From: Thermodesulfobacteriota bacterium
GTDB taxonomy: Bacteria; Desulfobacterota_D; UBA1144; Nemesobacterales; Nemesobacteraceae
DNA length: 64,000 nt
NCBI GenBank assembly: GCA_965116075.1
Contig: OZ220467.1
Coordinates: forward strand, 64,191-128,190
Direction: 5' to 3'
The notes under the pieces were generated by a model. It was not told where the DNA came from. It did no database searches and saw only the letters and a list, made by a program, of their open reading frames with translations. Below are positions 5,346-47,501 of the stretch, piece by piece; the first letter of the stretch is position 1; each line of letters begins with the position of its first letter. Position numbers and translations under genes: made by a program.

Positions 5346-5811
5346 GAGGCATTTGCGCTGTAGTGATTCTTGATGCTGATTTCTTTTGATGATTGTGGAA
5401 CCGTTACGAGTTCATTTCTTTTGTAAATGATAAATTTGTTATTAACTTGAGGTAGTTACACTACAACGATTTTTGGGACTTTTTCCTTGAGGATGACCAG
5501 AAACAACATTGACTTGCTCTTATAGTAGAGGAGAAGATTCTGCTAGCAAATTATAATTTCAACCTATGAAGACACCTTTATAGTGGCATTAAAAATAAAT
5601 GAGATCATCAGGTTATTTGTTTTTTGGAGAATTTTTACAGAGGTTATATCAACCGATTTTAGTGTGGGGTGAAATTTCTGGTTTTTGGCTTACATTAGCC
5701 GATTTTAGGACTTTTTTGGGGTATTTTGGGGGGATTTCTGGGGTAAAAAGTTTTTTACCCTTTCTAAAAACCCTTGATATGCATACATTTTTTGGACAGC
5801 GCAAATGCCTC
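5346..5811 (+). mobile_element. Non-autonomous MITE-like element (MITE-B). It is bounded by the 16-bp inverted repeats GAGGCATTTGCGCTGT / ACAGCGCAAATGCCTC of the IS5-family element at 31473..33469. Flanking 5-bp direct repeat AAAAC.
   Basis: 5640..5811 is the reverse complement of the first about 160 bp of the IS at 31473. 5346..5620 reappears reverse-complemented at 34440..34726. No transposase ORF. Confidence 0.7.
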
Positions 5812-6347: not shown

Positions 6348-6661
6348 CAGAAAGACTGCATTTATCATCAAAACATCGCAAGATGATTGAAGCATTGCTC
6401 AAGAACCATCTACCTGAAGTTGATGTTTGGGCTTACGGCAGTCGCATACATGGCCGAAGTCACGGTGGTAGTGATCTGGATTTAGTGTTACGCTCCCCTA
6501 GGTTGCAAAGGATTGACACTAGGCGATTAAATGCGCTTTTAGAAGCGTTTCAAGAATCTAACATCCCCTTTTTTGTGGAAGCGCGAGACTGGGCACGTCT
6601 ACCTGAAAACTTTCACAAAGAAATAGAAAAAGACCATGTGGTACTTGTATTAGGACAATAG
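6344..6661 (+). CDS. Minimal nucleotidyltransferase (MNT, pol-beta superfamily); putative antitoxin partner
   Basis: 105 aa carrying YGSRIHGRSHGGSDLDLVL (GSx9-13Dx[DE] NTase motif). Confidence 0.75.
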   Translation: MTERLHLSSKHRKMIEALLKNHLPEVDVWAYGSRIHGRSHGGSDLDLVLRSPRLQRIDTRRLNALLEAFQESNIPFFVEARDWARLPENFHKEIEKDHVVLVLGQ

Positions 6662-6755: not shown

Positions 6756-7553
6756 ATGAATATTAGTACTTATTTAAAGAAGTTTTTTCCGTTGGGGGTT
6801 CTAAGTCTATTTTTTACATTGGCGCTCATTTTTTCGCCTGTTGAAGGCAAAGCTCAGAACGATGCTACAGAATGTAAAAAAGCTGCAGATGTAGATTCTA
6901 CAAGTGAAACCGAAGTGAAGGCTTTTCTTGAGTGCACAGTAAAATACTACAATAGCACGATTGGGACTGACCCAAAACAGGTGAGACTAAATTTAGCAGA
7001 AATAACCAGAGAATTAAGAGTAAACGATGCTTACCAGAGTAAAAGTGATAATATGTATACAATCTTAATAGAAAACTATAACAATGTTGTTTTTAACCAC
7101 TTAGCGTATCCTGAGTTGTATGGTACCACGCTTAATGAAGATGCTGATACAGACGTTGCGATGAAGTTGAAAAAGTTAATTGTAGATTCCAAGTCGGCAC
7201 CTGCTGATGATAAAATTGCGTGCATAGAATATTATAATGAGACGAAGTATGCCTGTGCGACCCAAGTAATGGCCTTAGCGCCAATGACCATGATAGCAGG
7301 TTTTCATCATGATAAAAATGATGGCGCCTTTAAAAAACCTAATTGCTCGAATTTTGCCAAGCCGGACTTTACTGCTGAGCAGTTATACAAAGACCAGACC
7401 GATGCGAATCTTCGAAAATATGTAAAAAGTTTTATCTCATCAGCTCAAAAAGCGGTGCTTACTAGGATTGAGACGGAAGTTAAAGAAAATCCGAAAATGA
7501 AAGGGTTGCTTACGTCTACAAGCCCAGGGCTTTCTAATTTTTTAGAGGCGTAA
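6756..7553 (+). CDS. Secreted Cys-containing hypothetical protein with signal peptide
   Basis: AGGAGG SD followed by ATG at 6756. N-terminal hydrophobic signal (LGVLSLFFTLALIFSPVEGKA) and low GC. Weak resemblance to Cache-like periplasmic domains. Confidence 0.5.
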   Translation: MNISTYLKKFFPLGVLSLFFTLALIFSPVEGKAQNDATECKKAADVDSTSETEVKAFLECTVKYYNSTIGTDPKQVRLNLAEITRELRVNDAYQSKSDNMYTILIENYNNVVFNHLAYPELYGTTLNEDADTDVAMKLKKLIVDSKSAPADDKIACIEYYNETKYACATQVMALAPMTMIAGFHHDKNDGAFKKPNCSNFAKPDFTAEQLYKDQTDANLRKYVKSFISSAQKAVLTRIETEVKENPKMKGLLTSTSPGLSNFLEA

Positions 7554-7950
7554 GTCGTTGATATTACCGAGTATATCTTTTCAAAGAGAGTTTTGCATCT
7601 TAGAGGTTGCCACTACGTCATGGAGAGAAATTAGAGACTCATTTGTCTTCCCTTTCTAGCGGACATGTAGAAGAATTAGGCTCGGTTTCAGTTCTTCGTA
7701 AGTTTTTTCTTATAACAAACTCTTCTGAATTATAATCTGCGGAGTTGGATATGTAGGGAGAATATATCCAAGGTAGTACATTGTCATTTGGGGATTTGAG
7801 AAAACAGTGAAGTAATATTAGTACGTTATAATCCGGATATTCCAACAGAGATATTAAGTCACAATTCGGTTTCTTCGTTGTTAGATTTCGATCTGGACGT
7901 TACAAATTTAGTTCTGGCTATTTAATGTTTGTTATGGTATGGTGTAGATC

Positions 7951-9735
7951 ATGAGTAGACAGATGTCTCAGGATAATAAGATTGATCTGCACGCGGTCAC
8001 AGTACGTCCTACCTATGGGGAACAGGAGCGTCGTCACTGGGACCATTTAGTCAGACTACATCACTATCTTCCATTCCATCGCGTGTTCGGCAAGGGATTG
8101 CGTCATGTAGCGGAAGTTGGGTCGCGTTGGGTCGCGCTTATTGGTTGGCAGGCAGGCGCATTCAAGTTAGCGGCCCGAGACCGCTGGATTGGCTGGAGCG
8201 CCGAGCAGCAGTTTGGACGCTTGCATCTGATTGCCAACAATGTGCGTTTTGTCATTCTGACACGGCAGCGGGTGGCGAACTTGGCATCGCGAGTGCTGGG
8301 TCTGAGTCTGAGGCGGCTGTCTTCGGACATGCAGACAGCGCACGGTTATCCAGTGTTTCTGGCTGAGACGTTCGTAGATATTTCACGTTTTAATGGTACT
8401 TGCTACCGGGCGGCCAACTGGCAGTCTTTCGGGCTAACGCGCGGGTTTGCCCGTGAGTCTGGAGGGTCTGCGCGGTGGCGCTATCATGGTCAACCCAAGG
8501 AGGTCTTCATGTTTAATCTCGTTGATAATGCTAAAGAAGTATTAAGTCAAGAGGAATTACCACCAGAATGGACCGGTGGGGTTCGTAAGGAGCCTATGAC
8601 GGCGCCACAGTTACGCAGTCTCAAAGATGTTCTAGGTAAGGTGCCTGAGTTCCGAAAGTCTCAAGGTAGACGCTATCCTCTTGTCACCGTGTTGGTTCTC
8701 GCTGTCGCCGCCCGTTTGGCTGGATACCGCGGGGTGTCCGCCATAGCGCAGTTCGCCCGACTACTTAGTCAGGAACAGCTTAAGGCCGTTGGAGCGTTCT
8801 ACAGTCCCAGTAAGAAATGCTACACTGCGCCGGTAATTGGCACCTTCCATAACATCTTCGCAAAACTGCCACCCGACACGCTTGATAAAGCGCTGAACCT
8901 GTGGGAAGCCCGCAAGACCTCGCCCGCAGCGCCGGTGGCGATGGACGGCAAGATGATTCGTGGCGCAGCCAAGCAGACTGAGGGTGGAATTAGAATGATG
9001 GTAGCTGCCCTCGAACATAACACCGGCGTGGTTCTCGGTCAACTAGCAATCAAAGAAAAGAGCAGTGAGATGCTAGTGGTACGCGACCTAGCCAATAAAC
9101 TCGACATTGCTGGTCGTACTGTCACTCTAGATGCGCTGCATGCCCAGCAGGATACGGCGCGCTGTCTGCTGGAAAATGGAGCCGACTATGTGATGACCGC
9201 CATCAAGGACAATCAAAGAACGATCAGCAAGGAAATAAAGGGATTGGACTTTGATGCTGTGCCAGGATGGACAACCGAAGATTATAAACATGGGAGGATT
9301 GAAGAACGGACCTGTTGGGTAGTAGACCTATCCGGTTCTGAGTGGGATGGACATGTAGGCATGCACGGACGGCGTCAAGCCATACGCATAGTCCGCAAGC
9401 GCACTGAGAAGAAGACAGGTAAAACCAGTTGCGAGACTGTCTATGCTCTGACCTCACTTGGCCCAGAGCAGGCTGGAGCCAAGGAGTTACTTGCTCTGGT
9501 TCGCAACCACTGGCACATTGAGAACCGTCTGCATTATGTGCGTGACTTCACCTACGATGAAGACCGTTGTCGGGTATCAAAAGGGTACTTACCGGAAAAT
9601 CTTTCCTGTCTGAGCAACGTTGCCATCGCCATAGTGCGTTGTGAAGGTAGATTCAACTATCTGCCTGAAGCTAACCGACACTATGCCGCCCGGCCTCAGG
9701 AAGCTATTGAACTTATAATGAAGCCGTTGAACTGA
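7951..9735 (+). CDS. ISAs1-family transposase with an N-terminal DUF4338-like extension (fusion protein)
   Basis: The C-terminal about 385 aa carry the ISAs1 signature NHWHIENRLHYVRDFTYDEDRCRV and the DDE_Tnp_1-associated N-domain (RRYPLVTVLVLAVAARLAGYRGVSAIAQF). The N-terminal about 190 aa (IGWSAEQQFGRLHLIANNVRFVIL...YRAANWQSFGLTRG) parallel the DUF4338 protein at 28303..29196. GC is markedly higher than the flanks. Confidence 0.8.
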   Translation: MSRQMSQDNKIDLHAVTVRPTYGEQERRHWDHLVRLHHYLPFHRVFGKGLRHVAEVGSRWVALIGWQAGAFKLAARDRWIGWSAEQQFGRLHLIANNVRFVILTRQRVANLASRVLGLSLRRLSSDMQTAHGYPVFLAETFVDISRFNGTCYRAANWQSFGLTRGFARESGGSARWRYHGQPKEVFMFNLVDNAKEVLSQEELPPEWTGGVRKEPMTAPQLRSLKDVLGKVPEFRKSQGRRYPLVTVLVLAVAARLAGYRGVSAIAQFARLLSQEQLKAVGAFYSPSKKCYTAPVIGTFHNIFAKLPPDTLDKALNLWEARKTSPAAPVAMDGKMIRGAAKQTEGGIRMMVAALEHNTGVVLGQLAIKEKSSEMLVVRDLANKLDIAGRTVTLDALHAQQDTARCLLENGADYVMTAIKDNQRTISKEIKGLDFDAVPGWTTEDYKHGRIEERTCWVVDLSGSEWDGHVGMHGRRQAIRIVRKRTEKKTGKTSCETVYALTSLGPEQAGAKELLALVRNHWHIENRLHYVRDFTYDEDRCRVSKGYLPENLSCLSNVAIAIVRCEGRFNYLPEANRHYAARPQEAIELIMKPLN

Positions 9736-9958
9736 ACGGTCGCACTTTACTCACAACCCCGCCGGATAGCCTGTGCACTGCTCAGGTCTGATACCCTACG
9801 CCTACTGGACGGACAAAGGCTGCGTACACTGTAAGATGAAGCCAAGTGGTACCCTTGTTTCTTGCTAAAACTCTCCATCTGAAGTCCAAATCACAATCTA
9901 AACACTCCAAAACCTCTATCTACCCAACCCTATACAAAGTCCCCGCTACGAAAACTGA

Positions 9959-10612
9959 ATGGTCCTGTCTACAAGCCCTGCAGATAGAGCTGAGTTACTT
10001 GGGCGAGTCCACTCTCTCATAAATAGTTTAGCTACCTGTGTTGCAGATAATAGTTTGAAACATAAAAACGTATACGCTTTCATCATGTCAACAAATCAAA
10101 AGGGCACCGTCTTAGCTAACGGAAACGACGCCAATCTAAATGGTCTTAATTTTGACCTAGAAGATAAAGAGTTGAAAGGAGAGGACAAAAAAGTAGTAAA
10201 CCTGTTCCGAAGCAGTCTGGATAAAAATGGTGACGGTAATCCTGTAGCAGGAGAGTCCGCTCATGTCACCTACAGATGGGACGACCCCCAAAAGAATGGA
10301 GATGAATACGATGGTGACTACCTTAAAGATAAAGTTGTTCCCGGCAATTCAACTAAAAAAGGTTATATTGAAGTTGCTTGGATATCCAAAGCGTTTGAGG
10401 ATGAATACGACAATGTCGAACTACAAAACGCTCCAGTTATTTTCGGTTCGGGATATTATCTCTCCGATCCCCCGGCGACTGGAATGACAAAGGATGATGA
10501 CGACGGATGTGCGCTTGCGGGAACAGAACATACATCTCACAGCGTATTAGTTAATCTATTGCTGATAAGTTCTGTTCTTCTCTCTGTTGTTTTCCTGAGA
10601 AGGCGTGCTTAA
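9959..10612 (+). CDS. sCache_2-like periplasmic sensor domain fragment with a C-terminal GC+TM+RRR sorting-signal-like tail; probably a remnant truncated at the 5' end
   Basis: Cache-like pattern YAFIMSTNQKGTVLANGNDANLNGLNFDLEDKELKG...HVTYRWDDPQ...KKGYIEVAWISK. C-terminus DDDDGCALAGTEHTSHSVLVNLLLISSVLLSVVFLRRRA. No signal peptide or start context. It sits directly 3' of the ISAs1 element. Confidence 0.4.
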   Translation: MVLSTSPADRAELLGRVHSLINSLATCVADNSLKHKNVYAFIMSTNQKGTVLANGNDANLNGLNFDLEDKELKGEDKKVVNLFRSSLDKNGDGNPVAGESAHVTYRWDDPQKNGDEYDGDYLKDKVVPGNSTKKGYIEVAWISKAFEDEYDNVELQNAPVIFGSGYYLSDPPATGMTKDDDDGCALAGTEHTSHSVLVNLLLISSVLLSVVFLRRRA

Positions 10613-11087: not shown

Positions 11088-12494
11088 TCAGGCCGCGTGT
11101 CGTCGTCGCTTACGCCGACGTAGTAGAAGACCTATACGGTGGATGTTAAAGGCGGCTATGGAGAGTGACACCGTGCGAGCAAAACCATCTGCTCCACGCG
11201 CTCGGACACGATCCAACCCTCGGTGCTCAAGGTTATTTATCGCTGATTCCACTGCAGAATGCTTGCGACGCATCGCTACGAATTCTTCGCCTTGCTCTCG
11301 CTCTAGATCAGCCTTATTGGAACGACCCTTCTTCGGTAACACGTTGTGTTCAAGCAACTCGTCAAGCTTAATACGGTTTTCCGGACTGTGAAAACCACGG
11401 TCAAAACTCACCGCCCGCAGACTCGAAAACAACTCCTGGCCTCGTTTCACCATCTTCACCGCATAGTCCACGTCACTACCCTCCCACATCACCTCATGGT
11501 GAAGTATAAAACCAAAATGGTCTTCTAAAATACACACTGGCACTCCCAGTTCTACAGGACATCCTGCTTTCCCCTTCGAAATCCAGCGCGTGTGTGGCTC
11601 AAATATTGAAAACACTTTCTCACTATGCGGAATCTTTTCTCCCTGCAAAACACGACGGTTAACCTGGTCTATTTGTCGCTTCGCATGCTCAATATCTTTC
11701 TTGATCCTGTTGATGATTTTAACTTTCTCTCTTTTTGCAACCAGATACGGAAGCGTCTTCTCAGCACGCTTAACAATCTCTTCACAGCGCCCAAGATACT
11801 CTTCTACTCTTTGTGGCCTAGCTCGGTTGGCTCTTCTCACATCTTGAAACAAATCCTTAATCCTCTGCGTCAAGTGCTTCCACTGACGCCAGCCCGACAC
11901 TCCACGCCCCCTCGCTGCCTTGCTCGTCACTCGAATCAAACTCCGCATCGCATCCCACAAAAGATTCACATCCGTGGGATAGTGCACATTGGTCTCCGCC
12001 ACAAACGAATCACACCGCCCGCGTAAAAGCTCACCAAATTTCTTCCCTGCTACCTCATGACCAACTTCCACAATCAGAGCATTGATCTCATCAAGAATCT
12101 CAGGACTTAAAAGATTTACATTATCTACCATCGTCTGATAATTGTATTGATACTTGTCCCAGACCTTCACATGCCCGAGAAACTCACGTAGCGCAGTGTG
12201 CTGGTTCACCATGTCGTGAAGATGGTCAAAATCGCAACCTGTCCCCTGCTTGACCATACCCATCATAAAAATCCGCCACACCTCCATACCCGGTCTTCCT
12301 ACTTTCTTGTTGACCTTGGGAAGAATTTTCTCTTCAAGAATGGCAAACAGACCATTGCGAAATTTCTCGTTTTTGTACAGATGCTGAATCCCTTGTAAAA
12401 TGACTGGAAGATCGTCTCTGCATTTGTGGTCCAATTCAATATCCTCAATACTAACTCCGCCGAATTTCATCTGTCTATCACGTATTTTTCTCAT
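11088..12494 (-). CDS. IS5/IS1182-superfamily DDE transposase with a DUF772-like N-terminal domain
   Basis: 468 aa. N-terminus VGRPGMEVWRIFMMGMVKQGTGCDFDHL (InsH N-domain pattern). Central ETNVHYPTDVNLLWD. C-terminal ESAINNLEHRGLDRV. GC is higher than the host. Confidence 0.7.
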   Translation of the reverse strand: MRKIRDRQMKFGGVSIEDIELDHKCRDDLPVILQGIQHLYKNEKFRNGLFAILEEKILPKVNKKVGRPGMEVWRIFMMGMVKQGTGCDFDHLHDMVNQHTALREFLGHVKVWDKYQYNYQTMVDNVNLLSPEILDEINALIVEVGHEVAGKKFGELLRGRCDSFVAETNVHYPTDVNLLWDAMRSLIRVTSKAARGRGVSGWRQWKHLTQRIKDLFQDVRRANRARPQRVEEYLGRCEEIVKRAEKTLPYLVAKREKVKIINRIKKDIEHAKRQIDQVNRRVLQGEKIPHSEKVFSIFEPHTRWISKGKAGCPVELGVPVCILEDHFGFILHHEVMWEGSDVDYAVKMVKRGQELFSSLRAVSFDRGFHSPENRIKLDELLEHNVLPKKGRSNKADLEREQGEEFVAMRRKHSAVESAINNLEHRGLDRVRARGADGFARTVSLSIAAFNIHRIGLLLRRRKRRRHAA

Positions 12495-27128: not shown

Positions 27129-27208
27129 AAGTTCCATCCATGTAAAAAACCTTGGAAAAATGGGCAATTATACCTGACTAAATAAAACCTGCGGTATCTC
27201 CACATAAG

Positions 27209-27502
27209 GAGGCATTTGCACTGTCCAAAATGTATATGCATATCAAGAGGTTTTAGAAGGACATCCGAATAATACAGATAATTTGACCGAGGAATTTAGC
27301 GGTAGTGACTGTGAATGGATTGTTGCGTCTAAAGGTTGATAACTGGACGGAAATCAGCGGCAAATTCCGGGAAAATCAAGAAATTTGACCGTCAAATTAC
27401 TCAAATACGAATCAGTACGAACTGAAACAGTGGTGAACATACGTTCATACGTCCTCATTACGTCAAAACCACTCCCCCAAAAAACCTACAGCGCAAATGC
27501 CC
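27209..27502 (+). mobile_element. MITE-like deletion derivative of the IS5-family element (left 55 bp plus right about 240 bp, no transposase)
   Basis: Begins GAGGCATTTGCACTGTCC... and ends ...ACAGCGCAAATGCC. The internal part aligns with 33225..33469. Confidence 0.7.
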
Positions 27503-27642: not shown

Positions 27643-28279
27643 ATGAAGTTACGCAGTTTATTAGTGATGTTGTTACTGCTCACTGGAGCAGTTTTCTTTG
27701 TAGCTTGTGAGGGCGAGCGAGGGCCGGCAGGTCCGAAAGGCGACAAAGGCGACCCAGGAAAGGACGGTGCGAGAGGGCCAGCAGGAAAGGATGGTGCGAG
27801 AGGGCCGGCAGGCACGAAAGGTGATGACCTAACAGGTGGTGATCCTAGATGCGACCGCAGTAATGGGATAGATGTAGCCGGTGGCGGTTTTCTGATCCAA
27901 GGAACCGATGATGACGATGTTATTTGCGGTAATAATGCTCAAAACGAAATTAGAGCTCAAGACGGTGATGATGTTGTTTACGCCGGCGCCGGAATGGACA
28001 AACTAGTAGGTGGTGCTGGTGATGACACGCTTTATGGTGAAGCTGGGAATGATTTTTTCTTCGTTCTGAATGAAACCGGCACTAATAAATTGGTTGGTGG
28101 GGACGGGTGGGATATGTTAGTGTTCGCTTCTGATGATCCAAATAGGCACGACATTACTCTTCCTGACGGCCACTATGCTGTTAGTCTTGACAACTTACAG
28201 ACCGAAACCATAACCTTTGATCTTTCCTCGGGGAGTTTTGACGGTACTTCCTTTGAAACTGGAACATTTGCGTTTGAAG
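27643..28279 (+). pseudogene. Collagen-like/RTX-repeat lipoprotein paralog, fragment 1 of 3, interrupted by an IS66-family insertion
   Basis: SD AAGGGAGG plus ATG. Signal/lipobox MKLRSLLVMLLLLTGAVFFVAC. G-X-Y repeats GERGPAGPKGDKGDPGKDGARGPAGKDGARGPAGTKGDD. RTX nonapeptides GGAGDDTLYG. The reading frame continues at 31201 once the IS is removed. Confidence 0.75.
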
Positions 28280-28302
28280 GTAAGCGTTCGTTCAAGGGGT
28301 GT

Positions 28303-29196
28303 TTATAGGGGGTTTGAGCGATTGAGGATTTGTCTCCAATTCCTGTGAAGCGGTCGTAGCCAAATGTCCTTTTTGGGTTTATCGCATCGGTTGTAACGAT
28401 CGTAGCGGCCACGCCCCTGTGTAGTTCCAACGCGTATCCATCCAGAAGCCCGGTATACGGTGCCTGTATATGTCGGAATTTGTACAAACGTCTCAATAAG
28501 CACAGGTGTGAAGTTGTATCGTTGCTTCCAATCCTTGGGCAAGCGGCGACAGACTACCGAGAGAATGTGTGACCCAAGATTGGGTATCTGTATCCATGGA
28601 AGAATCAGGAATCTGGGGTTGTCGATAACCAACGGTAAATTCTTTTCACGTTGCTCGGATGTCCATCCTATGAAGGTGTCACGCGGCGCAAGTCTCCATG
28701 CGGCGGTGGAGAACCCTAGCATGGCCAGCGGCGAACCGTGGCGGTCGCGCACTGCGTAGCGCATCTGAGCCCCGACTAATGTCTTATAACCTAAGTAGTG
28801 ATAACGAGCTACAAACTCGTTCCATAGTTTGCCTTGCCTAGTGCCACTGACAACAGTGTGAACCTGTAGTGGACGGACTTCGTCAAGGGTCTTGGGAACC
28901 GGTAGCATAGGCGGTTCGGTGTCCACTCCAAAGACAATAGGCTTGGCTCGGGGCGACACTCGGGTGGGTGTCGGTAACTTGATGATGCCATCCCTATGCA
29001 TGGATAGCATGGTAACTCTGGCCGTCATATCCTTGAGTCCGCCATCGGGCTTGTACCACCCAATACGTCTGCAAAACTCTCTGGACAGAGCAGTCCGGTT
29101 GAGCCGCTCGGGCCCGGCTATCAAAGCGCGTAGCAGTTTCATCTCCGCAGTCGTGAACTCACGCCCGTAGTAGCGGCACTCAACCTCGTCGCTCAT
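28303..29196 (-). CDS. DUF4338-domain protein with an N-terminal putative winged-helix region, encoded inside the IS66-family element downstream of the transposase
   Basis: IGWTSEQREKNLPLVIDNPRFLILPWIQIPNLGSHILS...YRASGWIRVGTTQG. Its start overlaps the transposase stop by 4 nt. Confidence 0.75.
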   Translation of the reverse strand: MSDEVECRYYGREFTTAEMKLLRALIAGPERLNRTALSREFCRRIGWYKPDGGLKDMTARVTMLSMHRDGIIKLPTPTRVSPRAKPIVFGVDTEPPMLPVPKTLDEVRPLQVHTVVSGTRQGKLWNEFVARYHYLGYKTLVGAQMRYAVRDRHGSPLAMLGFSTAAWRLAPRDTFIGWTSEQREKNLPLVIDNPRFLILPWIQIPNLGSHILSVVCRRLPKDWKQRYNFTPVLIETFVQIPTYTGTVYRASGWIRVGTTQGRGRYDRYNRCDKPKKDIWLRPLHRNWRQILNRSNPL

Positions 29197-31079
29197 CTCT
29201 TGGCGCCAAAGTCACGCAAACGTTGCTCACTCATTGACCATGGCAACCAAGGCGATAGATCTTTTGGAGGACTCCTGCCATCTTCCGCGCAGGCTCTCAA
29301 CCATCCCTTCAGCCAACTAAGAACGTCAATGCCATTCTTTGCGAGCGTACCCAGCACCGTGTATAGAATGGCTGATGTTCTTGCGCCCTCTTCACTGTCA
29401 GATCCAAAACTTACTTTACGGGCGATGGCCAGCCAGCGTAGCGCTCTCTCCGCAATATTGTTATCCATGGGAACTTGGGGATGTTCAACGAACACGCTCA
29501 GCCCTTCACGATGATTCATAAGCGACTTAAGTGGCTTTCGCTCACGCGCATCTTCCGCTAACTCGGATAATTCACTCTCAGCTTTGCTGAACAATGCGTC
29601 GCACGCTTTTTTCAACTCTATCTGTATTCGTTCAAACTCTACAGTATTACCTGAGACGTAGTGATCACACCGCTGTTTGTTTAACTTATACATCTCTGCA
29701 ATGCGTTCTATCCATTGTTCATTCCATTGCTCAAGCTGCTCGTCTCCTGCAGCGCATTTTATAAAATCTCTTCGTACATGCGCCCAACAAAAACACAGCG
29801 TCACCTTCTTATTGAGTTCTTCGAGGAAATCCCGAACCATCTTCTTATAGGAACCGTGGCGGTCGCAGACCAAGAAAATACAATCAACGCTGTCAATGAA
29901 TAGGACCTTTGCCGCCTCAGAACTACGCCAACGGTGTATATTGAATAAGACAGAGTCTTTGCTCACAGATGTCCATAGCCAAGCGCGTTGAGAACCCCCC
30001 ACTTCCTTCAGTGACTGGATTCGCCAACTTGTCTCGTCTGCATGACGCAATCTATCTTCGTTTTGATGGGCGAGAATAGCGTCATAGAGAGTCTCGAACA
30101 GAGGCAGCAGGCGCTTTGCGCTGTCCGCTAGAGTCCCTGCCGAAATCTTAAACCCGTGGTCGCTAAAGCATTTCTCTATACTACGGTAGGGCCTCAGGTT
30201 CCAGTAGCGCTCGTATATCAATAGAGCCCAGACACTGGTCCCATATGGCGTATGTTCAAACAGCCGCGCCGGCGCTGGCGCAGTCACATAGAGCGGAGAT
30301 GACTCACAGTCGCATGACCTACGATAACGGAAGCGGTTAATCCTGCGCGTGTGCGCCTTAACCTTAATCTCTGATATCTTCGAGGTCCGCTTCCCATTTG
30401 CAACGTACCGCTCCCCACAACAAGAACAGGTAATCTCATCATCTGACGGATGCCACGACTCTTCTACCACCTCAATATCTGGTCGGGCTGTACGACCATG
30501 ACCAGGCGCCCCGGGCTGTTGTCCTCGTCTACGCCCCGAAGGTGAACTCTTCTGCTTCTCACTACGACGTCCGTACAACGAATTGGACAGAACCTTACGG
30601 TTAGAAAGCAGGTTCTTGACCTGCTTCTTCAGCTCTGCATTCTCATTCTTCAAGCTGCCAATCTCCATCCGCAACGATACAATCGTACTACGCTTGCGCC
30701 TATCTACTCCAACCTCGTCTAGCAATGCTCTAAGTCGTTGTACTTCTTTGTCCAACGATAAAGCACTTTTCGCCACACGACTGATACGCTTTACTTCCTC
30801 ATTTTTCGCGTCCAACTGAGTACGCGCTTTCTGGCAATACCTTTTATACCTCCCCGCCCAAGACCGTTGCCGAGTTACTTCATGTTCTAATTCCTGATAA
30901 TCATGTTCTAACTTCTGATGTTTATGTTTTAACTCCTGATAAGCCGCTAGCAACTCTTCGTACGAAAACTTACAGTCTAACGAAGCGCGTCCCGACGTAG
31001 CCGGCATGCAATTGATGCATCCAGCGTCATCTTTATCCAATAACCTGACAACCCCGATCTCTTTGTCGTGAACAATCAT
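29193..31079 (-). CDS. IS66-family transposase (TnpC-like)
   Basis: 628 aa with an N-terminal coiled coil, a CxxC zinc finger (ITCSCCGERY), and HADETSWRIQ, CWAHVRRDF and MDNNIAERALR motifs. Confidence 0.85.
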   Translation of the reverse strand: MIVHDKEIGVVRLLDKDDAGCINCMPATSGRASLDCKFSYEELLAAYQELKHKHQKLEHDYQELEHEVTRQRSWAGRYKRYCQKARTQLDAKNEEVKRISRVAKSALSLDKEVQRLRALLDEVGVDRRKRSTIVSLRMEIGSLKNENAELKKQVKNLLSNRKVLSNSLYGRRSEKQKSSPSGRRRGQQPGAPGHGRTARPDIEVVEESWHPSDDEITCSCCGERYVANGKRTSKISEIKVKAHTRRINRFRYRRSCDCESSPLYVTAPAPARLFEHTPYGTSVWALLIYERYWNLRPYRSIEKCFSDHGFKISAGTLADSAKRLLPLFETLYDAILAHQNEDRLRHADETSWRIQSLKEVGGSQRAWLWTSVSKDSVLFNIHRWRSSEAAKVLFIDSVDCIFLVCDRHGSYKKMVRDFLEELNKKVTLCFCWAHVRRDFIKCAAGDEQLEQWNEQWIERIAEMYKLNKQRCDHYVSGNTVEFERIQIELKKACDALFSKAESELSELAEDARERKPLKSLMNHREGLSVFVEHPQVPMDNNIAERALRWLAIARKVSFGSDSEEGARTSAILYTVLGTLAKNGIDVLSWLKGWLRACAEDGRSPPKDLSPWLPWSMSEQRLRDFGAKR

Positions 31080-31200
31080 ATGACCGATGATAACCGATCA
31101 ATTAAGGAGTGACCAGTCTAAATGCAAAAAAATATTTAAGACGGGATTAACGAACGATTAATCAAGCAAACACCCCTTGAACGAACGCTTACGTTTGAAG

Positions 31201-31472: not shown

Positions 31473-33469
31473 GAGGCATTTGCGCTGTCCAAAAGATGTA
31501 TGTATATCAAGGGTTTTTAGAAGGGGTAAAAAACTTTTTACCCCAAAAATACCCCAAAAAAGCCCTAAAATCGGCTAATGTAAGCCAAAAACCACAAATT
31601 TCACCCCACATAAACCAGTTGCCGATTTCTCCCTGAAAAACTTGGGAAAGAGATAAATAACTTGCTGATATTACTTGCTTTACATTCTATATCAGTTATT
31701 ATTATTTCTAACATTCACACATTCTCTCTATAAGGAGCAAACAGTTGCTACAAAAAAAGTATTTACCATTCTCTTGGGAACAAATTGATGAGATTTCAGA
31801 CCTCAAACGTCTTGAGTTGGTTTTGGATGCTTTGCCTGATGAAGATATCATTAGGGCTTTGAAAGCTATGCGCAAGAACGGGCGTAATGAGTATCCGGTA
31901 GAACCAATGTGGAGGGCGACGATTGCTGGCGTAGTGTTTCAGCACGAATCCATAGAATCACTGATACGGGAACTGAACCGTAATTCTGAACTACTTAATA
32001 GATGTGGATTCTGTCCCATTCCCATACAACATATTGACAAGTACAGTCTTGAGCAGGATGAAAACGGCGGGAGACCTAAAGTTGTGGTTAAACAATTTCC
32101 TATCTACAGTACGGCGCCTAGCAGTCACAATTTCTCTCGGTTTCTATCAAACGTAGCGAAGTTGGAGCAACGCGACGGTCTGATTTCGAAAATGATGGAT
32201 AGAATGGGAGGAGAGTTGAGAGAATCGCTTCCGGATTTTGGGAAGCATCTAGGATATGACGGTAAGTCTATAGAGAGTAATTCCACAGGGAGAAAGAGCA
32301 ATAAGACAGGAGAGACATCCGATCCTGATGCGGACTGGGGAGTACATACTACGTCTGGGTTTAACTCTGCTACAGGCAAGGCATGGAAAAGCGTAAAGAG
32401 ATGGTTTGGTTACAAGTTGCATGTAATTGCCGATACCAAGTATGAGATACCGGTTGCGATGAGTCTTACAAAGGCATCTGTATCAGAATATAAGGAGTTG
32501 AATCGGATGATAGACAAGTTGTTTGCGCAGAACCCTGAGTTGGTGGAGCGATGCGAATATTTCAGCGCAGACAAGGGTCTTGACAGTGGGTCATTGAAGA
32601 AGAAGTTTTGGAACGAATATGGAACTGACCCTATAATTGGTATCCGAGAGATGTGGAGGGTGGAGTTGGAGAATCAGAACTATATTGCTGGGCAAAAGAT
32701 TATGCGGCCTTTGAGAGAAGATATTAACAACATATTCTACACAGAGAAGGGCGAGGTTTGGTGTCGTTGTCCTATAACCAAGGTAGAAAGTAAGCTGGTG
32801 GGTTGGGGATATGAAGAGGAGCGAGGTACTTTGAAGTTTCGTTGTCCTGCGGCAGCGCATAACCTGAATTGCGTAGGTAGGGAGAAGTGTCACAAAAATG
32901 CGGGTCGTAAGAACAGTGAATATGGCTTATCCATACGAGTTCCTTTGGACAAGGACCCTCGTATTTTTACCCCGACTCCGTATGGTTCAGTAACTTGGGA
33001 GCGGGAGTATAAGCTTAGGAATTCTATAGAACGTATAAACTCAAGGGTTGACAATAGTTTTAAGTTAGAGAGGCATTTTATCAGAGGCAAGGCTAAAATG
33101 ACTGCTCGTACAGGCTTAGCGTTGAGTGTGATGATGGCGTTAGCCATTGGACACATAAAGGCTGGAAGGGCTGATAAGATGAGGTCCCTTGTTTCTGGGT
33201 GTGCTCCTCGGGCTGGATAGGGTTTTTCTCCGAATACTACAGATAATTTGACCAGAGGAATTTAGCGGTAGTGGCCGTGAATGTATAGTTGCGTCTAAAG
33301 GCTGATAATTGGGCGAAAATCAGCATCATATCCTGCGAAAATCAAGGAATCTGACCGTCAGATTGTTCAAATACGAATCAGTACGAACTGAGACAGTGCT
33401 GAACATGCCTTCATACGTCCTCATTACGTCTAAAATCACTCTCAAAAACCTTACAGCGCAAATGCCTCA
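31473..33469 (+). mobile_element. IS5/IS1182-family insertion sequence (2.0 kb). Perfect 16-bp terminal inverted repeats GAGGCATTTGCGCTGT. Flanking direct repeat ATTAAA.
   Basis: Terminal repeats at 31473..31488 and 33454..33469. Excision restores the reading frame of the disrupted gene. It is the source of the MITE family. Confidence 0.8.
31745..33220 (+). CDS. IS5/IS1182-family DDE transposase (DUF772-like N-terminal domain)
   Basis: 491 aa with NGRNEYPVEPMWRATIAGVVFQHESIESLIRELNRNSELLNRCGF and C-terminal ERHFIRGKAKMTARTGLALSVMMALAIGHIKAGRAD. TTG start. Confidence 0.8.
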   Translation: MLQKKYLPFSWEQIDEISDLKRLELVLDALPDEDIIRALKAMRKNGRNEYPVEPMWRATIAGVVFQHESIESLIRELNRNSELLNRCGFCPIPIQHIDKYSLEQDENGGRPKVVVKQFPIYSTAPSSHNFSRFLSNVAKLEQRDGLISKMMDRMGGELRESLPDFGKHLGYDGKSIESNSTGRKSNKTGETSDPDADWGVHTTSGFNSATGKAWKSVKRWFGYKLHVIADTKYEIPVAMSLTKASVSEYKELNRMIDKLFAQNPELVERCEYFSADKGLDSGSLKKKFWNEYGTDPIIGIREMWRVELENQNYIAGQKIMRPLREDINNIFYTEKGEVWCRCPITKVESKLVGWGYEEERGTLKFRCPAAAHNLNCVGREKCHKNAGRKNSEYGLSIRVPLDKDPRIFTPTPYGSVTWEREYKLRNSIERINSRVDNSFKLERHFIRGKAKMTARTGLALSVMMALAIGHIKAGRADKMRSLVSGCAPRAG

Positions 33470-33726: not shown

Positions 33727-34102
33727 ACCGAACTTCTCTTGTTAAAAATACGGAATGGTCAATACAGTATTAGGATATAGGCGAATTCAACCTGTCATTG
33801 AACTGAAAACAAACCGGGCCGGATCAATATTAAGTAGGTTAAATGCCTTTTGTTGTAAATGTTGGCTCAAAGATACTAGCGAAGCAATCACGGGTATAGT
33901 TATTTCTGGATGACCGGACAAATAAAACTCAATGCGTAGAAACACGGTATTATTCTGCGCTGGAAACAATAAAAGTCAGATGAAGTTCGGACTAAAGAAT
34001 CTCGGTGTGGAGTTTACAGCAGGTTTTATACCTGTGGTTTTTTTTAGTACATTGGCAAGAACGCTTCAGGAGGAAATACGATGAGCCTAGCAAAAGACTT
34101 CA

Positions 34103-34726
34103 GAGGCATTTGCGTTGTCCAAAATGTGTATACATATCAAGGGGTTTTAGAAGAGTAAAAAACTTTTTACGTAAGCGTTCGTTCAAAGGGGTGTTTATAG
34201 AGGGTTTGAGCGATTGAGGATTTGTCTCCAATTTCTGTGAAGCGGTCGTAGCCAAATGTCCTTTTTGGGTTTATCGCGTCAATTGTACCGGTTGGAGCGA
34301 CCACGTTCCTGTGTAGTTCCAACGCGTATCCATCCAGAGGCACGGTATACGGTACCTGTATATGTCGGAATTTGTACAAATGTCTCAACCCAAGTTTACC
34401 CCCAAAAAGCCCTAAAATCGGTTGACATAGCCTCTGTAAAATTCCCCAAAAAAAATAATTTGACGATGTCATTTGTTTTAATGTTATCATAAAGGTGTCT
34501 TCATAGGTTGAAATTATAATTTGCTAACAGAATCTTCTCCTCTTCTATGAGAGTAAGTCAATGTTATTTTTGGTCATCCTCAAGGAAAAGCCCAAAAAAT
34601 CATTGTAGCGTAACTACCTCAAGTTAATGACAAATTTATCATCTACAAAAAAACCATAACGGTTCCACAATCATCAAAAGAAATCAGCATCAAGCATCAC
34701 TACAGCGCAAATGCTCCACATGCGGT
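34103..34726 (+). mobile_element. MITE-B copy (inverted relative to 5346..5811) carrying a nested about 215-bp fragment of the IS66-like element end (about 34163..34378). It is inserted into a paralog of the small ORF at 44405.
   Basis: Left repeat GAGGCATTTGCGTTGT at 34103, right ...ACAGCGCAAATGCTC at about 34726. The internal GTAAGCGTTCGTTCAAAGGGGTGTTTATAGAGGG... block matches 28280..28500. Confidence 0.6.
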
Positions 34727-42267: not shown

Positions 42268-42662
42268 CGTAAAAGTTCGTTCAATGGGTGTTTATAGAGG
42301 GTTTGAGCGGTTGATGATTTGTCTCGAATTCCTGTGAAGCGGTCGTAGCGACCGCGCCCTGCGTAGTTCCAACGCGTATCCATCCAGAAGCCCGGTATAC
42401 GGTGCCTGTATATGTCGGAATTTGTACAAACGCCTCAATAAGCACGGGTGTGACGTTGTATCGTTGGGTTCACTCCTTGGGCAAGCGGCGACAGACTACC
42501 GAAAGAATGTGTGACCCAAGATTGGGTATTTGTATCAATGGAAGAATCAGGAACCGGGGGTTGTCAATAACCAACGGTAGATTCTTTTCACGTCGCTCGG
42601 ACGTCCATCCTATGAAGGTATCGCGCGGCGCAAGTCTCCGTGCGGTGGTGGAGAAACCTTTG
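42268..42662 (+). mobile_element. Partial copy (about 395 bp) of the IS66-like element end, including the 3' third of the DUF4338 gene
   Basis: Aligns with 28280..28680. The ORF-track 76-aa fragment ...RLAPRDTFIGWTSERREKNLPLVIDNPRFLILPLIQIPNLGSHILSVVCRRLP lies here. Confidence 0.65.
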
Positions 42663-42958
42663 GACACTAAAGGCTGGAAGGGCTGACAAAATGAGGTCAC
42701 TTGTTTCTGAGTGTCTTAATCGGGCTCCGAATAATACAGATAATTTGACCAGAGGAATTTAGCGGCAGTGACCGTGAATGGGTTGTTGCGTCCAAAGGCT
42801 GATAATTATGCGGAAATCAACGGCAAATTGCGGGAAAATCAAAAAATCTGCCCATCAGATTGCTCAAATACGAATCAGTACGAACTGAAACAGTGTTGAA
42901 CATGCGTTCATACGTCCTCGTCTAAAACCACTCCCAAAAGCCCTACAGCGCAAATGCC
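42663..42958 (+). mobile_element. Remnant of the IS5-family element right end (transposase 3' tail plus right terminal region), abutting the promoter of the intact collagen/RTX gene
   Basis: ...IKAGRADKMRSLVSECLNRA-like tail, then sequence that aligns with 33225..33469 and ends ACAGCGCAAATGCC. Confidence 0.65.
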
Positions 42959-43012: not shown

Positions 43013-43100
43013 ACTAATTTAAGAATGAGGGTTCTATAACAAGGTTTTGCCAGATAAATGGTCATTTATAAATGGAACAACTTATAAGGGAGGTTGTAAT

Positions 43101-44306
43101 ATGAAGTTAGGTAGTTTATTAGTGATGTTGTTACTGCTTACTGGAACAGTTTTCTTTGTAGCTTGTGAAGGGGAAAGAGGTCCAGCGGGCGAAAAAGGTG
43201 ACAAGGGAGACACAGGTGAGAAAGGTGAGAAAGGCGACCCAGGGAAAGACGGAATACCTGGGCCAGCGGGGTCAGATGGGAGAGATGGAGCAGATGGAGG
43301 AGATGGAGCAGATGGTACTCCATTTGGCGATCCGAGATGCGATGTTATCAATGGAATACAGGGGCTATTAGGAGTTGTTAATGGCGCAAGCATTGCTGAG
43401 GGTGCCATCTCTGGGACTGCTGATGACGATGTTATTTGTGGAACTCGGGTTTTTAACTATATACGAGGGCAAGGCGGTGATGATATTGTTTACGGTGGAG
43501 ATGGTGGTGACATACTAGTAGGCGGTGCTGGTGATGATACGCTTTACGGTGAAGGTGGAGATGACCATTTTTTCCTTAGAGCTGAAAGTGGTGCTAATAA
43601 ACTGGTAGGCGGTGAGGGTAAGGACGCTGTTTACCTCGGTGGCCCTCCAACTTTTGGGTTACTTAATCTTGTTACGAACAATATAGGCTTTTTTTGGGGA
43701 ACAGGCTCAATAGTGGTTTCTGCTAATGTAACCTTAGATCTTTCTTCGGGGACTTTAGATGGTGCTGCTAATTCTATCAACGGAAATGGAACGTTTACAT
43801 TTGAAGGCATTGAGGATATTCGGGGCGGTAGTGGTGCTGAAACGCTTATCGGAAACGAGTTAAATAATTTCATCATTGGAAATGGCGGAAACGATACTAT
43901 TAACGGGAAAGCGGGAGATGATACTCTTCTCAGTGGTAACGAAAACGATACTATTGACGGCGGGGCGGGAGATGATGTTATTTACGGGAATCAGGGTGCC
44001 GACACTTTTACCGGTGGCGCTGGCTCTGACATTTTCCTAATTCGTAAAGGCTTTGGGACTAAGGTTATTGCAGATTTTGATTTGACGGAAGACATGATCT
44101 ATTTCAGAAATTTTACAGCAGGCGGGGAAACAATAACCGTTGGGAGCGGTAAGTTGACTGTCGGCGGAACTGAGGTTGTGATACATGGTGCGAACGGTCA
44201 ACCGGATAACACAAAGGCGGGAAAGATAAACAGCGAAAATAAATATAGGTTTGTAAATTCATCGTTTGGTCCAAAGACACGAACCTACACTTTTACAGAC
44301 AACTAA
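43101..44306 (+). CDS. Secreted lipoprotein with collagen-like G-X-Y repeats and RTX (hemolysin-type calcium-binding) nonapeptide repeats; intact paralog
   Basis: SD GGGAGG 7 nt upstream. Lipobox FFVAC. 17 G-X-Y triplets (GERGPAGEKGDKGDTGEKGEKGDPGKDGIPGPAGSDGRDGADGGDGADGTP). Several GGxGxDxUx repeats (GGAGDDTLY, GGAGDDVIY, GGAGSDIFL). Confidence 0.8.
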   Translation: MKLGSLLVMLLLLTGTVFFVACEGERGPAGEKGDKGDTGEKGEKGDPGKDGIPGPAGSDGRDGADGGDGADGTPFGDPRCDVINGIQGLLGVVNGASIAEGAISGTADDDVICGTRVFNYIRGQGGDDIVYGGDGGDILVGGAGDDTLYGEGGDDHFFLRAESGANKLVGGEGKDAVYLGGPPTFGLLNLVTNNIGFFWGTGSIVVSANVTLDLSSGTLDGAANSINGNGTFTFEGIEDIRGGSGAETLIGNELNNFIIGNGGNDTINGKAGDDTLLSGNENDTIDGGAGDDVIYGNQGADTFTGGAGSDIFLIRKGFGTKVIADFDLTEDMIYFRNFTAGGETITVGSGKLTVGGTEVVIHGANGQPDNTKAGKINSENKYRFVNSSFGPKTRTYTFTDN

Positions 44307-44694: not shown

Positions 44695-44765
44695 GAGAGC
44701 GGTTTTTTACTCCTTCTAAAACCCCTTGATATACATACACCCGCCCATTAAACAGCCGTAAAAGA
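44695..44765 (-). mobile_element. Degenerate remnant of an IS5-family/MITE left end
   Basis: GTTTTTTACTCCTTCTAAAACCCCTTGATATACATACAC aligns with 5753..5795 (AGTTTTTTACCCTTTCTAAAAACCCTTGATATGCATACAT), but the terminal repeat is degenerate. Confidence 0.35.
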
Positions 44766-46468: not shown

Positions 46469-46482
46469 TTTTTCTGCGAAAT

Positions 46483-47102
46483 GAGGCATTTGCACTGTCC
46501 AAGATTTATATGCATATCAAGAGGTTTTAGAAGGGGGTAAAAAACTTTTTACCCCACCCCAAAAATCAGTTGCTGATTTTTCCCTGAAAGACCCAAAAAG
46601 TACATCTGACTACGACCGCTTCACAGGAACTGAAGACAAATCCTTAACCGCTCAACCCTCTATAAACACCCCCTGAACAAAAATTTACGCAAGTTCAGAT
46701 TAGAAAAGCACTTTATCAGATGTAAGGCTGAAATGAGTGTTCGTACACGCTTAGAGTTGTGTGTGATGATAGTGCTAGCGATTGGACACATAAAGGCCGG
46801 AAGGGCTGATAATATGAGGCCACTTGTTTCTGGGTGTCTTCCTAGGGCTGGATAGAGTTTTTCTCCGAATAATACAGATAATTTGACCAGAGAAATTTAG
46901 CGGCATTGACCATGAATGGATTGTTGCGTTCAAAGGCTGGTAATTGGGCAGAAATCAGCAGCAAATTGCGGGAAAATCAAAAAATCTGCTCGTCAGATTA
47001 TCAAATACGAATAGTACGAACTGAAACAGTGGTGAACATACGTTCATTACGTTCTCATTAACGTCAAAACCACACCCAAAAACCATACCGCGCAGATGCC
47101 TC
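46483..47102 (+). mobile_element. Composite IS remnant: IS5-family left end, a short reverse-complemented IS66-like end fragment (about 46605..46680), the transposase 3' tail (about 46690..46855), and the IS5-family right end
   Basis: Begins GAGGCATTTGCACTGTCC and ends ACCGCGCAGATGCCTC. The internal ...LEKHFIRCKAEMSVRTRLELCVMIVLAIGHIKAGRADNMRPLVSGCLPRAG* parallels the transposase C-terminus at 33070..33220. Confidence 0.65.
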
Positions 47103-47115: not shown

Positions 47116-47150
47116 CTTGACACCTCCTTTTTTAGTGGTATCATTGGACG
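47116..47150 (+). promoter_or_regulatory. Putative sigma-70 promoter (TTGACA, 16-nt spacer, TATCAT) directly after the IS remnant, driving the riboswitch-btuB unit
   Basis: Hexamers read directly: ttgaca-cctccttttttagtgg-tatcat. Confidence 0.35.
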
Positions 47151-47154
47151 CTAG

Positions 47155-47345
47155 ATTCAGGTTAAGGGAATCGGGTGAAAATCCCGGACTGTTCCCGCAG
47201 CCGTTATAAGGTTTTTCCTCACATTAACTCAGAGAAATTCCAATGCTCTGGGGGTCACTGGCCGACGAATATTGGCTGGGAAGGCTTACGGAGGAACCCG
47301 CTTTTATAGCACGCCTTTAAGTCGGAAGACCTGCCTGTATCAATC
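47155..47345 (+). promoter_or_regulatory. Cobalamin (AdoCbl) riboswitch
   Basis: Conserved core GGTTAAGGGAATCGGGTGAAAATCCCGGACTGTTCCCGCAGCCGTA, a GTCACTGGCC element, and the B12 box AGTCGGAAGACCTGCC. Lies upstream of a BtuB-like receptor. Confidence 0.7.
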
Positions 47346-47501
47346 CTGGTAGATGCCTCGGGAGTTAGGCTGATGGGTTCTGAAAGGCTTCTTTATCAAT
47401 CGGACCACACTTGAGAAAAAGAAACTTTTAGACATGCGTTCTCTGTACGCTGAACCGACGCTTCTTCCAGAAAACACTTAAGTTCAAGGAGGAACTTTAC
47501 T

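Follow-up and report, generated by a model that had tools for sequence, protein, structure and literature searches.

In the genome of a Thermodesulfobacteriota bacterium, a stretch of 64,000 nucleotides (contig OZ220467.1, positions 64,191 to 128,190; in the following called the window) contains two complete insertion sequences (ISs), one of the IS66 family and one of the ISAs1 family, each of which encodes a DUF4338 domain (PF14236) together with its transposase. DUF4338 lies within the terminal repeats and moves with the element, and it is both transcribed and translated together with the transposase, either from a gene which overlaps the transposase stop codon as ATGA (IS66-type) or as part of an in-frame fusion (ISAs1-type). 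Across Bacteria and metagenome-assembled genomes (MAGs) assigned to Archaea, the domain was found in combination with six or more transposase families, and purifying selection acts on it as strongly as on the transposase. DUF4338 is regarded here, with somewhat better than even confidence, as an integral and portable accessory module of DDE insertion sequences, which is probably enzymatic and acts together with the transposase.

The usual view is that an insertion sequence requires hardly more than its transposase, and the few known accessory proteins, IstB, TnpA and TnpB of IS66, and TnpB/IscB, each opened new biology. The presence of one GNAT-fold module in at least six unrelated DDE families and in thousands of sequence clusters, with many of the elements clearly active, implies a general, family-independent need in transposition, which might be regulation, host interaction or a metabolic gate.

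DUF4338 in the two insertion sequences of the window

The complete IS66-family element comprises 2,913 bp (28280..31192, minus strand), with its limits given by terminal repeats and a target duplication. It codes for an IS66-family DDE transposase of 628 amino acids with a coiled-coil N-terminal region (29193..31079, minus strand), which matches PF03050 (E 4e-52) and the NCBIfam model NF033517, 'IS66 family transposase' (271 bits, cut-off 180). Downstream of the transposase gene, the DUF4338 gene codes for a protein of 297 amino acids (28303..29196), with the PF14236 match at amino acids 104-269 (E 2.1e-40, 139.1 bits, gathering score 27). The strand of this open reading frame (ORF), which is the minus strand, was left unstated in a first-pass annotation of the sequence. 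Its ATG and the TGA of the transposase gene overlap in the sequence ATGA. The terminal inverted repeat on the DUF4338 side, GTAAGCGTTCGTTCAAGGGGTGTTT (28280..28304), includes the DUF4338 stop codon, and the arm on the transposase side (31168..31192) is its reverse complement at 25/25 positions; these perfect 25-nt repeats start with GTAAGCGTTCG... (GTAAGCG). Copies of an 8-bp target-site duplication, GTTTGAAG, are located at 28272..28279 and 31193..31200, and excision of the element with one copy of the duplication results in a continuous RTX/collagen-like host ORF of 336 amino acids. A separate DUF4338 gene overlapping the stop of an IS66 transposase inside inverted repeats, as described in the first-pass annotation, was confirmed by the perfect arms, the duplication and the ATGA overlap.

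Terminal repeats beginning with GTAAGCG and an 8-bp target duplication are hallmarks of the IS66 family, and both are present in the window element and likewise in loci L005, L007, L016, L020, L086 and L095. In the canonical IS66 group, the accessory genes tnpA and tnpB are located upstream of the transposase gene. Both are absent from the window element, in which transposase and DUF4338 make up the whole gene content; it presumably resembles the ISBst12-type subgroup, which is devoid of tnpA and tnpB. A second copy of the element, with 92.8% identity, was identified in L083.

The complete ISAs1-family element comprises 2,443 bp (7525..9967, plus strand). Its limits were set by alignment with a second copy, L082, located in another genomic context (95.4% identity over 2,450 bp). 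Weak candidate ends from an inverted-repeat scan (7881-7898/9884-9901) were dropped once L082 gave the true ends. The ends read CAGGGC.../...GTCCTG and are flanked by a 10-bp target-site duplication, TCTACAAGCC, at 7515..7524 and 9968..9977; excision with one copy of the duplication yields a host ORF of 476 amino acids. The element encodes a fusion protein of 594 amino acids (7951..9735, plus strand), in which the DUF4338 GNAT core at amino acids 7-166 (7969..8448, plus strand; PF14236, E 2.9e-26, 92.8 bits) is followed by the ISAs1 transposase part at amino acids 226-562 (8626..9636, plus strand). The latter consists of a DDE_Tnp_1_assoc domain (PF13808, amino acids 226-318) and a DDE domain (PF01609, amino acids 329-542), and the protein matches NF033564, 'ISAs1 family transposase', with 203.5 bits (cut-off 70), in agreement with the in-frame fusion to an ISAs1 transposase proposed earlier. 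Elements of the ISAs1 family have ends starting with CAGG, a target duplication of 8-10 bp and one transposase ORF of ~350-400 amino acids in ~1.2-1.5 kb. The window element departs from this usual size, the length of its ORF being due to the N-terminal DUF4338 core.

Both ORFs score above the PF14236 gathering score in the profile check which had been proposed, and their DUF4338 regions align in BLASTP over ~200 residues with 29% identity (E 6e-29), so that the claim of one shared domain holds. The motifs quoted in the first-pass annotation, HWHIENRLHYVRDF among them, are present in the translations. In the stand-alone protein the alignment begins at residue 100, in the fusion at residue 1, and the fusion is without the N-terminal helical domain of the stand-alone protein. 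The first-pass annotation was also refined. A recruitment of the same domain by both elements within this genome does not fit two domains which are only ~30% identical, each of which came with its own IS lineage, and the label 'passenger' is inappropriate for a gene which is under selection, translationally coupled to the transposase and in many cases fused to it.

For the 297-amino-acid protein, more than 5,900 database homologues were identified, of which the best 120 have ~293 amino acids and 71-79% identity; the window's own cluster, at 96%, comes in addition. Since the window protein and P0121 are without an exact-sequence database record, the cluster members P0243 and P0001 were used. 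One relative, P0112, follows an IS66 transposase of 851 amino acids with the same 4-nt overlap. Another, P0037, is an identical 293-amino-acid protein present at at least 10 sites, with an intact IS66 transposase of 776-785 amino acids upstream at 8 of them and a split or shortened transposase ORF at 2; the element has 3.37 kb, ~29-nt repeats and 8-bp duplications. For the ISAs1 type, the fusion architecture PF14236 + PF13808 + PF01609 in ~595 amino acids was found in 120/120 of the best clusters listed (56-69% identity). An identical 595-amino-acid fusion, P0126, is present at at least 10 sites of one assembly in an element of 2,085 bp with CAGG ends and with 9-10-bp duplications at 7/10 sites, some of these insertions splitting recognisable genes. 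The leader before the ATG of the window fusion (7525-7950) comprises 426 nt and is AT-rich (~35% GC), compared to only ~95 nt in the P0126-type element; no Rfam hit was obtained in this leader. An identical Tn5-type fusion of 763 amino acids is present at 8 sites. For the Tn5-type fusion IS P0548, terminal repeats were found and a target duplication is not claimed, since the boundaries are ambiguous. Dozens of sequence variants exist of both window elements; a single 2.39-Mb contig carries many of these, and other contigs carry the rest.

Among the plasmids of PLSDB, a relative was present in only 2/72,556 records, and DUF4338 is therefore not a plasmid-borne trait of cultured bacteria. On a plasmid of Candidatus Thiodictyon syntrophicum (L084, NZ_CP020372.1 282572-283450), a DUF2235 gene is split by a stand-alone DUF4338 gene, which is accompanied by an integrase and by IS91 and IS4 transposases, representing nested insertions.

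DUF4338 in other genomes and transposase families

The genomic context of DUF4338 was surveyed with a profile built from 41 diverse full-length relatives, by which one genome per GTDB species was scanned. The survey comprised 80 returned loci with 39-55% identity to the IS-borne query and the closer relative L001; it spans more than 12 phyla and includes an ANME-2 archaeal MAG. The 80 loci represent an independent sample, because the search peptide pattern happens to exclude the window's own clade. Neighbours were classified by tblastn with five transposase queries and by Pfam and NCBIfam. An IS66 transposase was identified directly upstream on the same strand in 46 loci and an IS66-like transposase directly downstream in 7. 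A Tn5/IS4 transposase was located upstream in 8 loci and downstream in 2, another IS4-like transposase was adjacent in 3 (in one case on the opposite strand), and an ISKra4-like protein of 466 amino acids was located downstream in 3. The other loci comprise one with an unknown neighbour of 666 amino acids, 5 with an unresolved neighbour, 3 on contigs which are too short, and 3 in which no transposase was found beside the DUF4338 gene. In this genomic-context survey, of the kind suggested in the first-pass annotation, directly abutting DDE transposases on the same strand were identified for at least 68/81 DUF4338 genes (84%). The two genes are closely spaced, with a 4-nt stop/start overlap in 26 IS66-type loci and a gap of 0-3 nt in 8/8 Tn5-type loci.

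In four element types, IS66-, Tn5-, IS4-like and ISKra4-like, terminal repeats and target duplications enclose both genes. IS66-type elements with enclosing repeats and 8-bp duplications were identified in L005, L007, L016 and L020. The Tn5-type element L006 is enclosed by repeats with the ends CTTTCTATTACACACATCT, which we take to resemble the Tn5 mosaic end. Repeats and a duplication surround both genes in the IS4-like element L027, and the ISKra4-like element (L075, L079) has repeats around both genes and 9-bp duplications. At the insertion sites, no obvious shared target sequence was found.

A search of 1.84 billion cluster representatives returned 8,430 relatives at E <= 1e-3, of which 1,006 were obtained at E <= 1e-30. 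The longest full-coverage hits were transposase fusions in 10/10 cases, and the next ten longest included four more IS66 fusions. In the IS66 fusions, the transposase is N-terminal and DUF4338 C-terminal; in the Tn5/IS4, IS630 and IS4-type fusions, DUF4338 is located at the N-terminus of the transposase. With an IS630 fusion as seed, at least 15 IS630-fusion clusters and at least 65 Tn5/IS4-fusion clusters were identified, together with ~10 IS66 fusions and 6 other DDE_Tnp_1 fusions. Some of the Tn5/IS4-fusion clusters are derived from MAGs assigned to Archaea and are named simply 'IS4 family transposase' at NCBI. Of P0415 and P0478, one is a fusion of DUF4338 to PF07592, presumably the ISAzo13-type DDE domain (the search output gave the accession only), and the other is a fusion to DUF6788 (PF20586). 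In a neighbour-joining tree of 95 DUF4338 domains, the clades mostly track the partner type. The Tn5 association and the arrangement with IS66 downstream each arise at least twice in this tree, which suggests repeated exchange between families.

Taken together, the adjacency in at least 68/81 loci, the enclosing repeats and the conserved fusions substantiate the central proposal of the first-pass annotation, according to which DUF4338 recurs with unrelated transposases as a functional partner and not as a chance neighbour. Chance adjacency or an artefact of gene calling or assembly is effectively refuted. In favour of it, many matches are derived from short metagenomic contigs, but the same architecture is present on megabase contigs and in complete genomes, for example NC_013194, and numerous sites with target duplications contain identical copies.

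Three further observations were made on the surveyed loci. The ISKra4-like element is an IS of 2.46 kb (L075 5861-8321, L077, L079), with DUF4338 first, followed by the 466-amino-acid protein, and with 21-nt repeats and 9-bp duplications. The 466-amino-acid protein matches no Pfam family and shows a sub-threshold match to the ISKra4-family model NF033572 (E 7e-31). Copies of this IS share 99.8% identity between a Desulfospira MAG and a Christensenellaceae MAG, which reflects either a recent transfer between phyla or a binning error. In L106 (4001-5556), a DUF4338 protein of 398 amino acids overlaps by 4 nt the start of an ORF of 120 amino acids with a Resolvase (serine recombinase) domain, and the pair is flanked by a large serine recombinase on one side and by a tyrosine integrase on the other. 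From this single case, the DUF4338 module may also pair with non-DDE recombinases. In L001 (7129-12537), an IS66-DUF4338 copy lies beside a DEAD/Helicase_C protein of 1,285 amino acids and a PF09369 (MZB/DUF1998) protein, adjoining two integrases; this defence-island-like context is probably a coincidence.

Fold, selection and proposed role of DUF4338

An AlphaFold2 model of the 297-amino-acid protein (pLDDT confidence score 79) consists of a small N-terminal domain at amino acids 5-69, a linker and a core with GNAT topology. The core, delimited by the model, Foldseek and conservation, comprises amino acids 104-283 (28348..28887, minus strand). Its elements are predicted in the order beta1-alpha1-alpha2-beta2-beta3-beta4-alpha3-beta5-alpha4-beta6, which is the order of the GNAT fold, with a conserved two-helix insertion (RD.WIGW..EQR...L) between beta3 and beta4. 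In a Foldseek comparison to the PDB, the 50 best hits shown were all GNAT enzymes (probability 1.0, E ~1e-4), among them the GNAT domain of NAT10/Kre33, SpeG, phosphinothricin acetyltransferase (PAT) and RimI. A PDB sequence search with the family profile returned nothing at E <= 1. DUF4338 has independently been called a GNAT domain by the Aravind laboratory, which described its fusion to some DndF proteins (PMC10853773).

The N-terminal domain (28990..29184, minus strand) has a beta-beta-alpha-alpha-alpha arrangement in the model, is possibly similar to a helix-turn-helix (HTH) and is conserved across the family. When it was modelled separately with AlphaFold2, a pLDDT of 87 was obtained. 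A fold search against the PDB gave nothing significant for this domain (best E 0.65), the weak matches being Myb, winged-helix and homeodomain proteins, and the label 'winged helix' is consequently not claimed. In the structure prediction which had been suggested to look for DNA-binding folds, no significant match to such a fold was obtained. If any part of the protein is a DNA binder, it could only be this small helical domain. As the domain is absent from the ISAs1 fusions, the constant unit is the GNAT core. The functional module postulated in the first-pass annotation is retained, with an enzymatic or ligand-sensing role considered likelier than a plain DNA-binding or target-selection role, because the core resembles a GNAT acyltransferase in fold.

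In the 95 domains, which cover all partner types, the invariant residues number 14: H133, L135, G142, R172, W178, L207, L212, E235, G245, Y248, A250, W253, G257 and G261. R146, R195, S209, R262 and K276 are nearly invariant, with L207 conserved in 95/95 domains and S209 in 94/95. In GNATs, motif A in the beta4-alpha3 loop binds the pyrophosphate of coenzyme A (CoA). The loop after beta4 of DUF4338 reads (Q/R/K)-x-x-(N/H)-L-(A/G)-S, a conserved variant at the position of this motif. Judging from the model, E235 (beta5) and Y248 (alpha4) would be placed like the general base and the general acid of GNATs, and the core most likely binds acyl-CoA and transfers an acyl group. Comparison of the window copies to their second copies gave ratios of nonsynonymous to synonymous substitution rates (dN/dS) of 0.11 for the DUF4338 part of the fusion (against L082), 0.17 for its transposase part and 0.20 for the stand-alone DUF4338 gene. 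Purifying selection on a gene which is confined to a multicopy element points to a function that matters for the propagation of the element.

The partner transposases already carry end-binding domains of their own, namely Tnp_DNA_bind, HTH or DDE_Tnp_1_assoc. Since, in addition, DUF4338 is fused to either terminus and produced 1:1 with the transposase, the module would most likely work inside the transposase-DNA complex. It would neither recognise the element ends nor take part in the DDE chemistry. The likeliest activity would be the acylation of a lysine, either of the transposase itself or of a host protein bound to DNA, by which transposition might be gated or tuned, possibly according to the acyl-CoA (metabolic) state of the cell. 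That such an acylation forms a regulatory or metabolic gate on transposition is put forward tentatively, as a possibility with less than an even chance.

Several points weigh against this interpretation. In 3/81 surveyed loci an adjacent transposase was not found, and 9 more are unresolved, unknown or off the contig. The survey covered relatives with 39-55% identity and L001, within a PF14236 family of 8,430 clusters at 50% identity, and the family as a whole also includes Druantia and DndF contexts. The neighbour-joining tree carries no support values, and the number of substitutions per class behind the dN/dS values is only 7-20. Foldseek gave modest scores, with template modelling (TM) scores of 0.3-0.6 (0.5-0.6 on target), and the beta4-alpha3 loop departs from the canonical motif A, Q/R-x-x-G-x-G/A. 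Acyl-CoA binding and catalysis are predicted from the model and from conservation, an effect on transposition is proposed from the gene architecture, and the suggested acylation substrate is conjectural. In addition, DUF4338 is dispensable for transposition in the canonical members of all these IS families, and the domain therefore cannot be essential to the chemistry.

Other roles have to be considered for the same gene arrangement. DUF4338 might be a non-catalytic adaptor, corresponding to the target-selection or DNA-binding partner of the first-pass annotation, in which a GNAT pseudo-enzyme scaffold and the N-terminal domain bind DNA or a host protein and either steer target choice or assemble the transpososome. 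Coupling and fusion to transposases would suit such a structural role equally well, Arg or Lys is present at many of the invariant positions, and the glycines of the canonical motif A are absent from the beta4-alpha3 loop. The Glu/Tyr pair and this loop are, however, invariant in all contexts, as is typical of active GNATs. The small N-terminal helical bundle, with its weak fold matches to Myb, winged-helix and homeodomain proteins, would also suit an adaptor, but these matches are not significant and the ISAs1 fusions dropped this domain to keep the GNAT core alone. With no obvious common target sequence at the insertion sites either, an adaptor is considered rather unlikely.

A host-directed effector, either a GNAT toxin-like or an anti-restriction enzyme which would, for example, acetylate aminoacyl-tRNA or a host factor and thereby slow growth, stabilise the element by addiction or neutralise a host system limiting transposition, is distinctly improbable. 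An antitoxin gene would not fit into the 2,913 bp of the element, dozens of copies are tolerated per genome, and a toxin which acts freely would not be expected to be fused in frame or coupled 1:1. In its favour, GNAT toxins are established in toxin-antitoxin systems, toxin-antitoxin modules occur in the transposition modules of the Tn3 family, and DUF4338 is present in Druantia type I and has been described as the 'effector-type' N-terminal domain of DndF (PMC10853773). Still less probable is a host-benefit cargo, in which insertion sequences would carry a stand-alone defence function like that of Druantia DruA. The Pfam name 'DruA', the weak PADLOC match to DruA and the L001 copy beside a helicase/MZB defence-like pair are compatible with cargo. 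PADLOC gives no more than 26 and 20 bits, though, druB to druE are absent, the neighbours are transposases inside the element boundaries, and neither in-frame fusion in five families nor translational coupling is normal for cargo, for which many copies per genome would also be redundant.

An accessory module acting with the transposase hence remains the preferred reading. In its most far-reaching form, DUF4338 would be an active acyl-CoA-dependent enzyme which licenses or tunes DDE transposition in the transpososome and was repeatedly exchanged among at least six IS families, and the DruA subunit of Druantia type I and the GNAT domain of DndF would be its domesticated relatives, or the reverse. 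This extended version is speculative, with odds clearly against it. If it were true, it would establish a new evolutionary link between transposons and defence, akin to TnpB-Cas12 or casposon-Cas1, and provide a first handle on what DruA does.

Relation to known systems and further features of the window

The DUF4338 domain is also present in the DruA protein of Druantia type I; PF14236 is now named 'DruA', and its Pfam threshold is passed by both window proteins. The PADLOC model of DruA, PDLC00002, matches the window proteins weakly, with 26.1 bits (E 1e-6) and 19.7 bits (E 9e-5), at positions 93-217 of 407. In Druantia, DruA is encoded with druB, druC, druD and the DruE helicase; none of these is present beside the window genes, which lie in ISs within interrupted host genes. 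Unlike DruA, the window proteins are located inside insertion sequences and are coupled or fused to transposases. The weak PADLOC match, the absence of druB to druE and the IS location speak against orthology to DruA; the window proteins are therefore regarded as members of the DUF4338 superfamily and not as Druantia components, and automatic 'DruA' or 'Druantia' labels on IS-borne DUF4338 genes are misleading. A function for DruA was not found in a literature search; the IS-borne DUF4338 would be a tractable model from which the role of this domain in defence against phages could be approached. In DndF, the N-terminal GNAT (DUF4338) domain is likewise a swappable module on a DNA-transaction protein, the partner being a component of phosphorothioate-dependent restriction (PMC10853773) and not a transposase as in the window.

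With GNAT N-acyltransferases (RimI, SpeG, phosphinothricin acetyltransferase and the GNAT domain of NAT10/TmcA), DUF4338 has the order of strands and helices in common. Its beta4-alpha3 loop is similar to motif A, and it contains a Glu/Tyr pair ~13 residues apart, as does RimI. DUF4338 differs from these enzymes by its two-helix insertion, by the replacement of the motif A glycines with N/H and A, and by having no sequence relative in the PDB.

TnpB/IscB proteins of IS200/IS605 and IS607 elements are, like DUF4338, travelling non-transposase accessories which occur with unrelated transposase types and have relatives in defence. TnpB, however, is an RNA-guided nuclease with a guide RNA, whereas DUF4338 has a GNAT fold and is often fused to the transposase. 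A scan of both window elements against Rfam identified no RNA family, so that an RNA-guided mechanism is without support. TnpA and TnpB of IS66 (Orf1/Orf2) and IstB of IS21 are also element-encoded helpers co-expressed with a DDE transposase, but their folds are unrelated to DUF4338, which in contrast is not confined to one IS family. Toxin-antitoxin pairs embedded in Tn3-family elements are a further case of non-transposase genes integral to a transposition module. They consist of two genes and are not known to be fused to the transposase, whereas DUF4338 is a single GNAT-fold protein without an antitoxin.

Among ~8 million papers and preprints searched in full text, DUF4338 is mentioned in four, none of which links it to transposons, and a prior curation in ISfinder is possible. 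Automated annotation records the architectures: a JGI name lists DUF4338 with a Tn5 transposase, and PGAP labels are either 'DUF4338 domain-containing protein' or plain 'ISAs1/IS4 family transposase'. Insertion sequences with an accessory protein as such are already known, and what is rated as new is an accessory protein type common to several IS families.

Three remnants of the IS66-DUF4338 element are also present in the window, all of which derive from the DUF4338-proximal end. A degraded and truncated remnant at 42269..42673 (minus strand) contains the terminal repeat and DUF4338 residues ~156-297 (blastn 82%, tblastn 89%), and a truncated one at 34171..34389 (minus strand) contains the terminal repeat and amino acids 234-297 (blastn 92%, tblastn 91%). 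The third is a short element end in inverted orientation at 46591..46681 (plus strand; blastn 88% over 92 nt). Two of the three remnants begin directly beside or within ~25 bp of a copy of another repeat, ggcatttgcgctgtccaaaagatgtat..., which has ~70-150 bp and occurs in at least 6 copies (34102-34170, 46480-46565, 31473-31614, 5658-5811, 27205-27260 and 44702-44739). This repeat may be a miniature inverted-repeat transposable element, the end of another IS or a context in which insertion is preferred.

In or beside members of a gene family with collagen and RTX repeats lie the intact IS66-DUF4338 element, one of the remnants and also the copy in L083 (27589-28279 continued from 31201 onward; 43047-44306; L083 6412-7233). 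Upstream of the collagen/RTX genes, ~200 bp are conserved (from 27300 for the interrupted gene, 33266-33466, from 42763, and 46901-47100). The location of the copies at these genes could reflect a target preference or segmental duplication.

The window is very IS-rich, and DDE_Tnp_1-type transposase genes without DUF4338 were identified at 11088-12494 (minus strand) and 31745-33220 (plus strand). At 5916-6661, a nucleotidyltransferase substrate-binding (HEPN-like) protein and a small nucleotidyltransferase are encoded by an overlapping gene pair, the usual arrangement in HEPN/MNT toxin-antitoxin modules. Upstream of a gene for a TonB-dependent receptor (47502-49436), a cobalamin riboswitch (RF00174, 68 bits) is located at 47142-47352.

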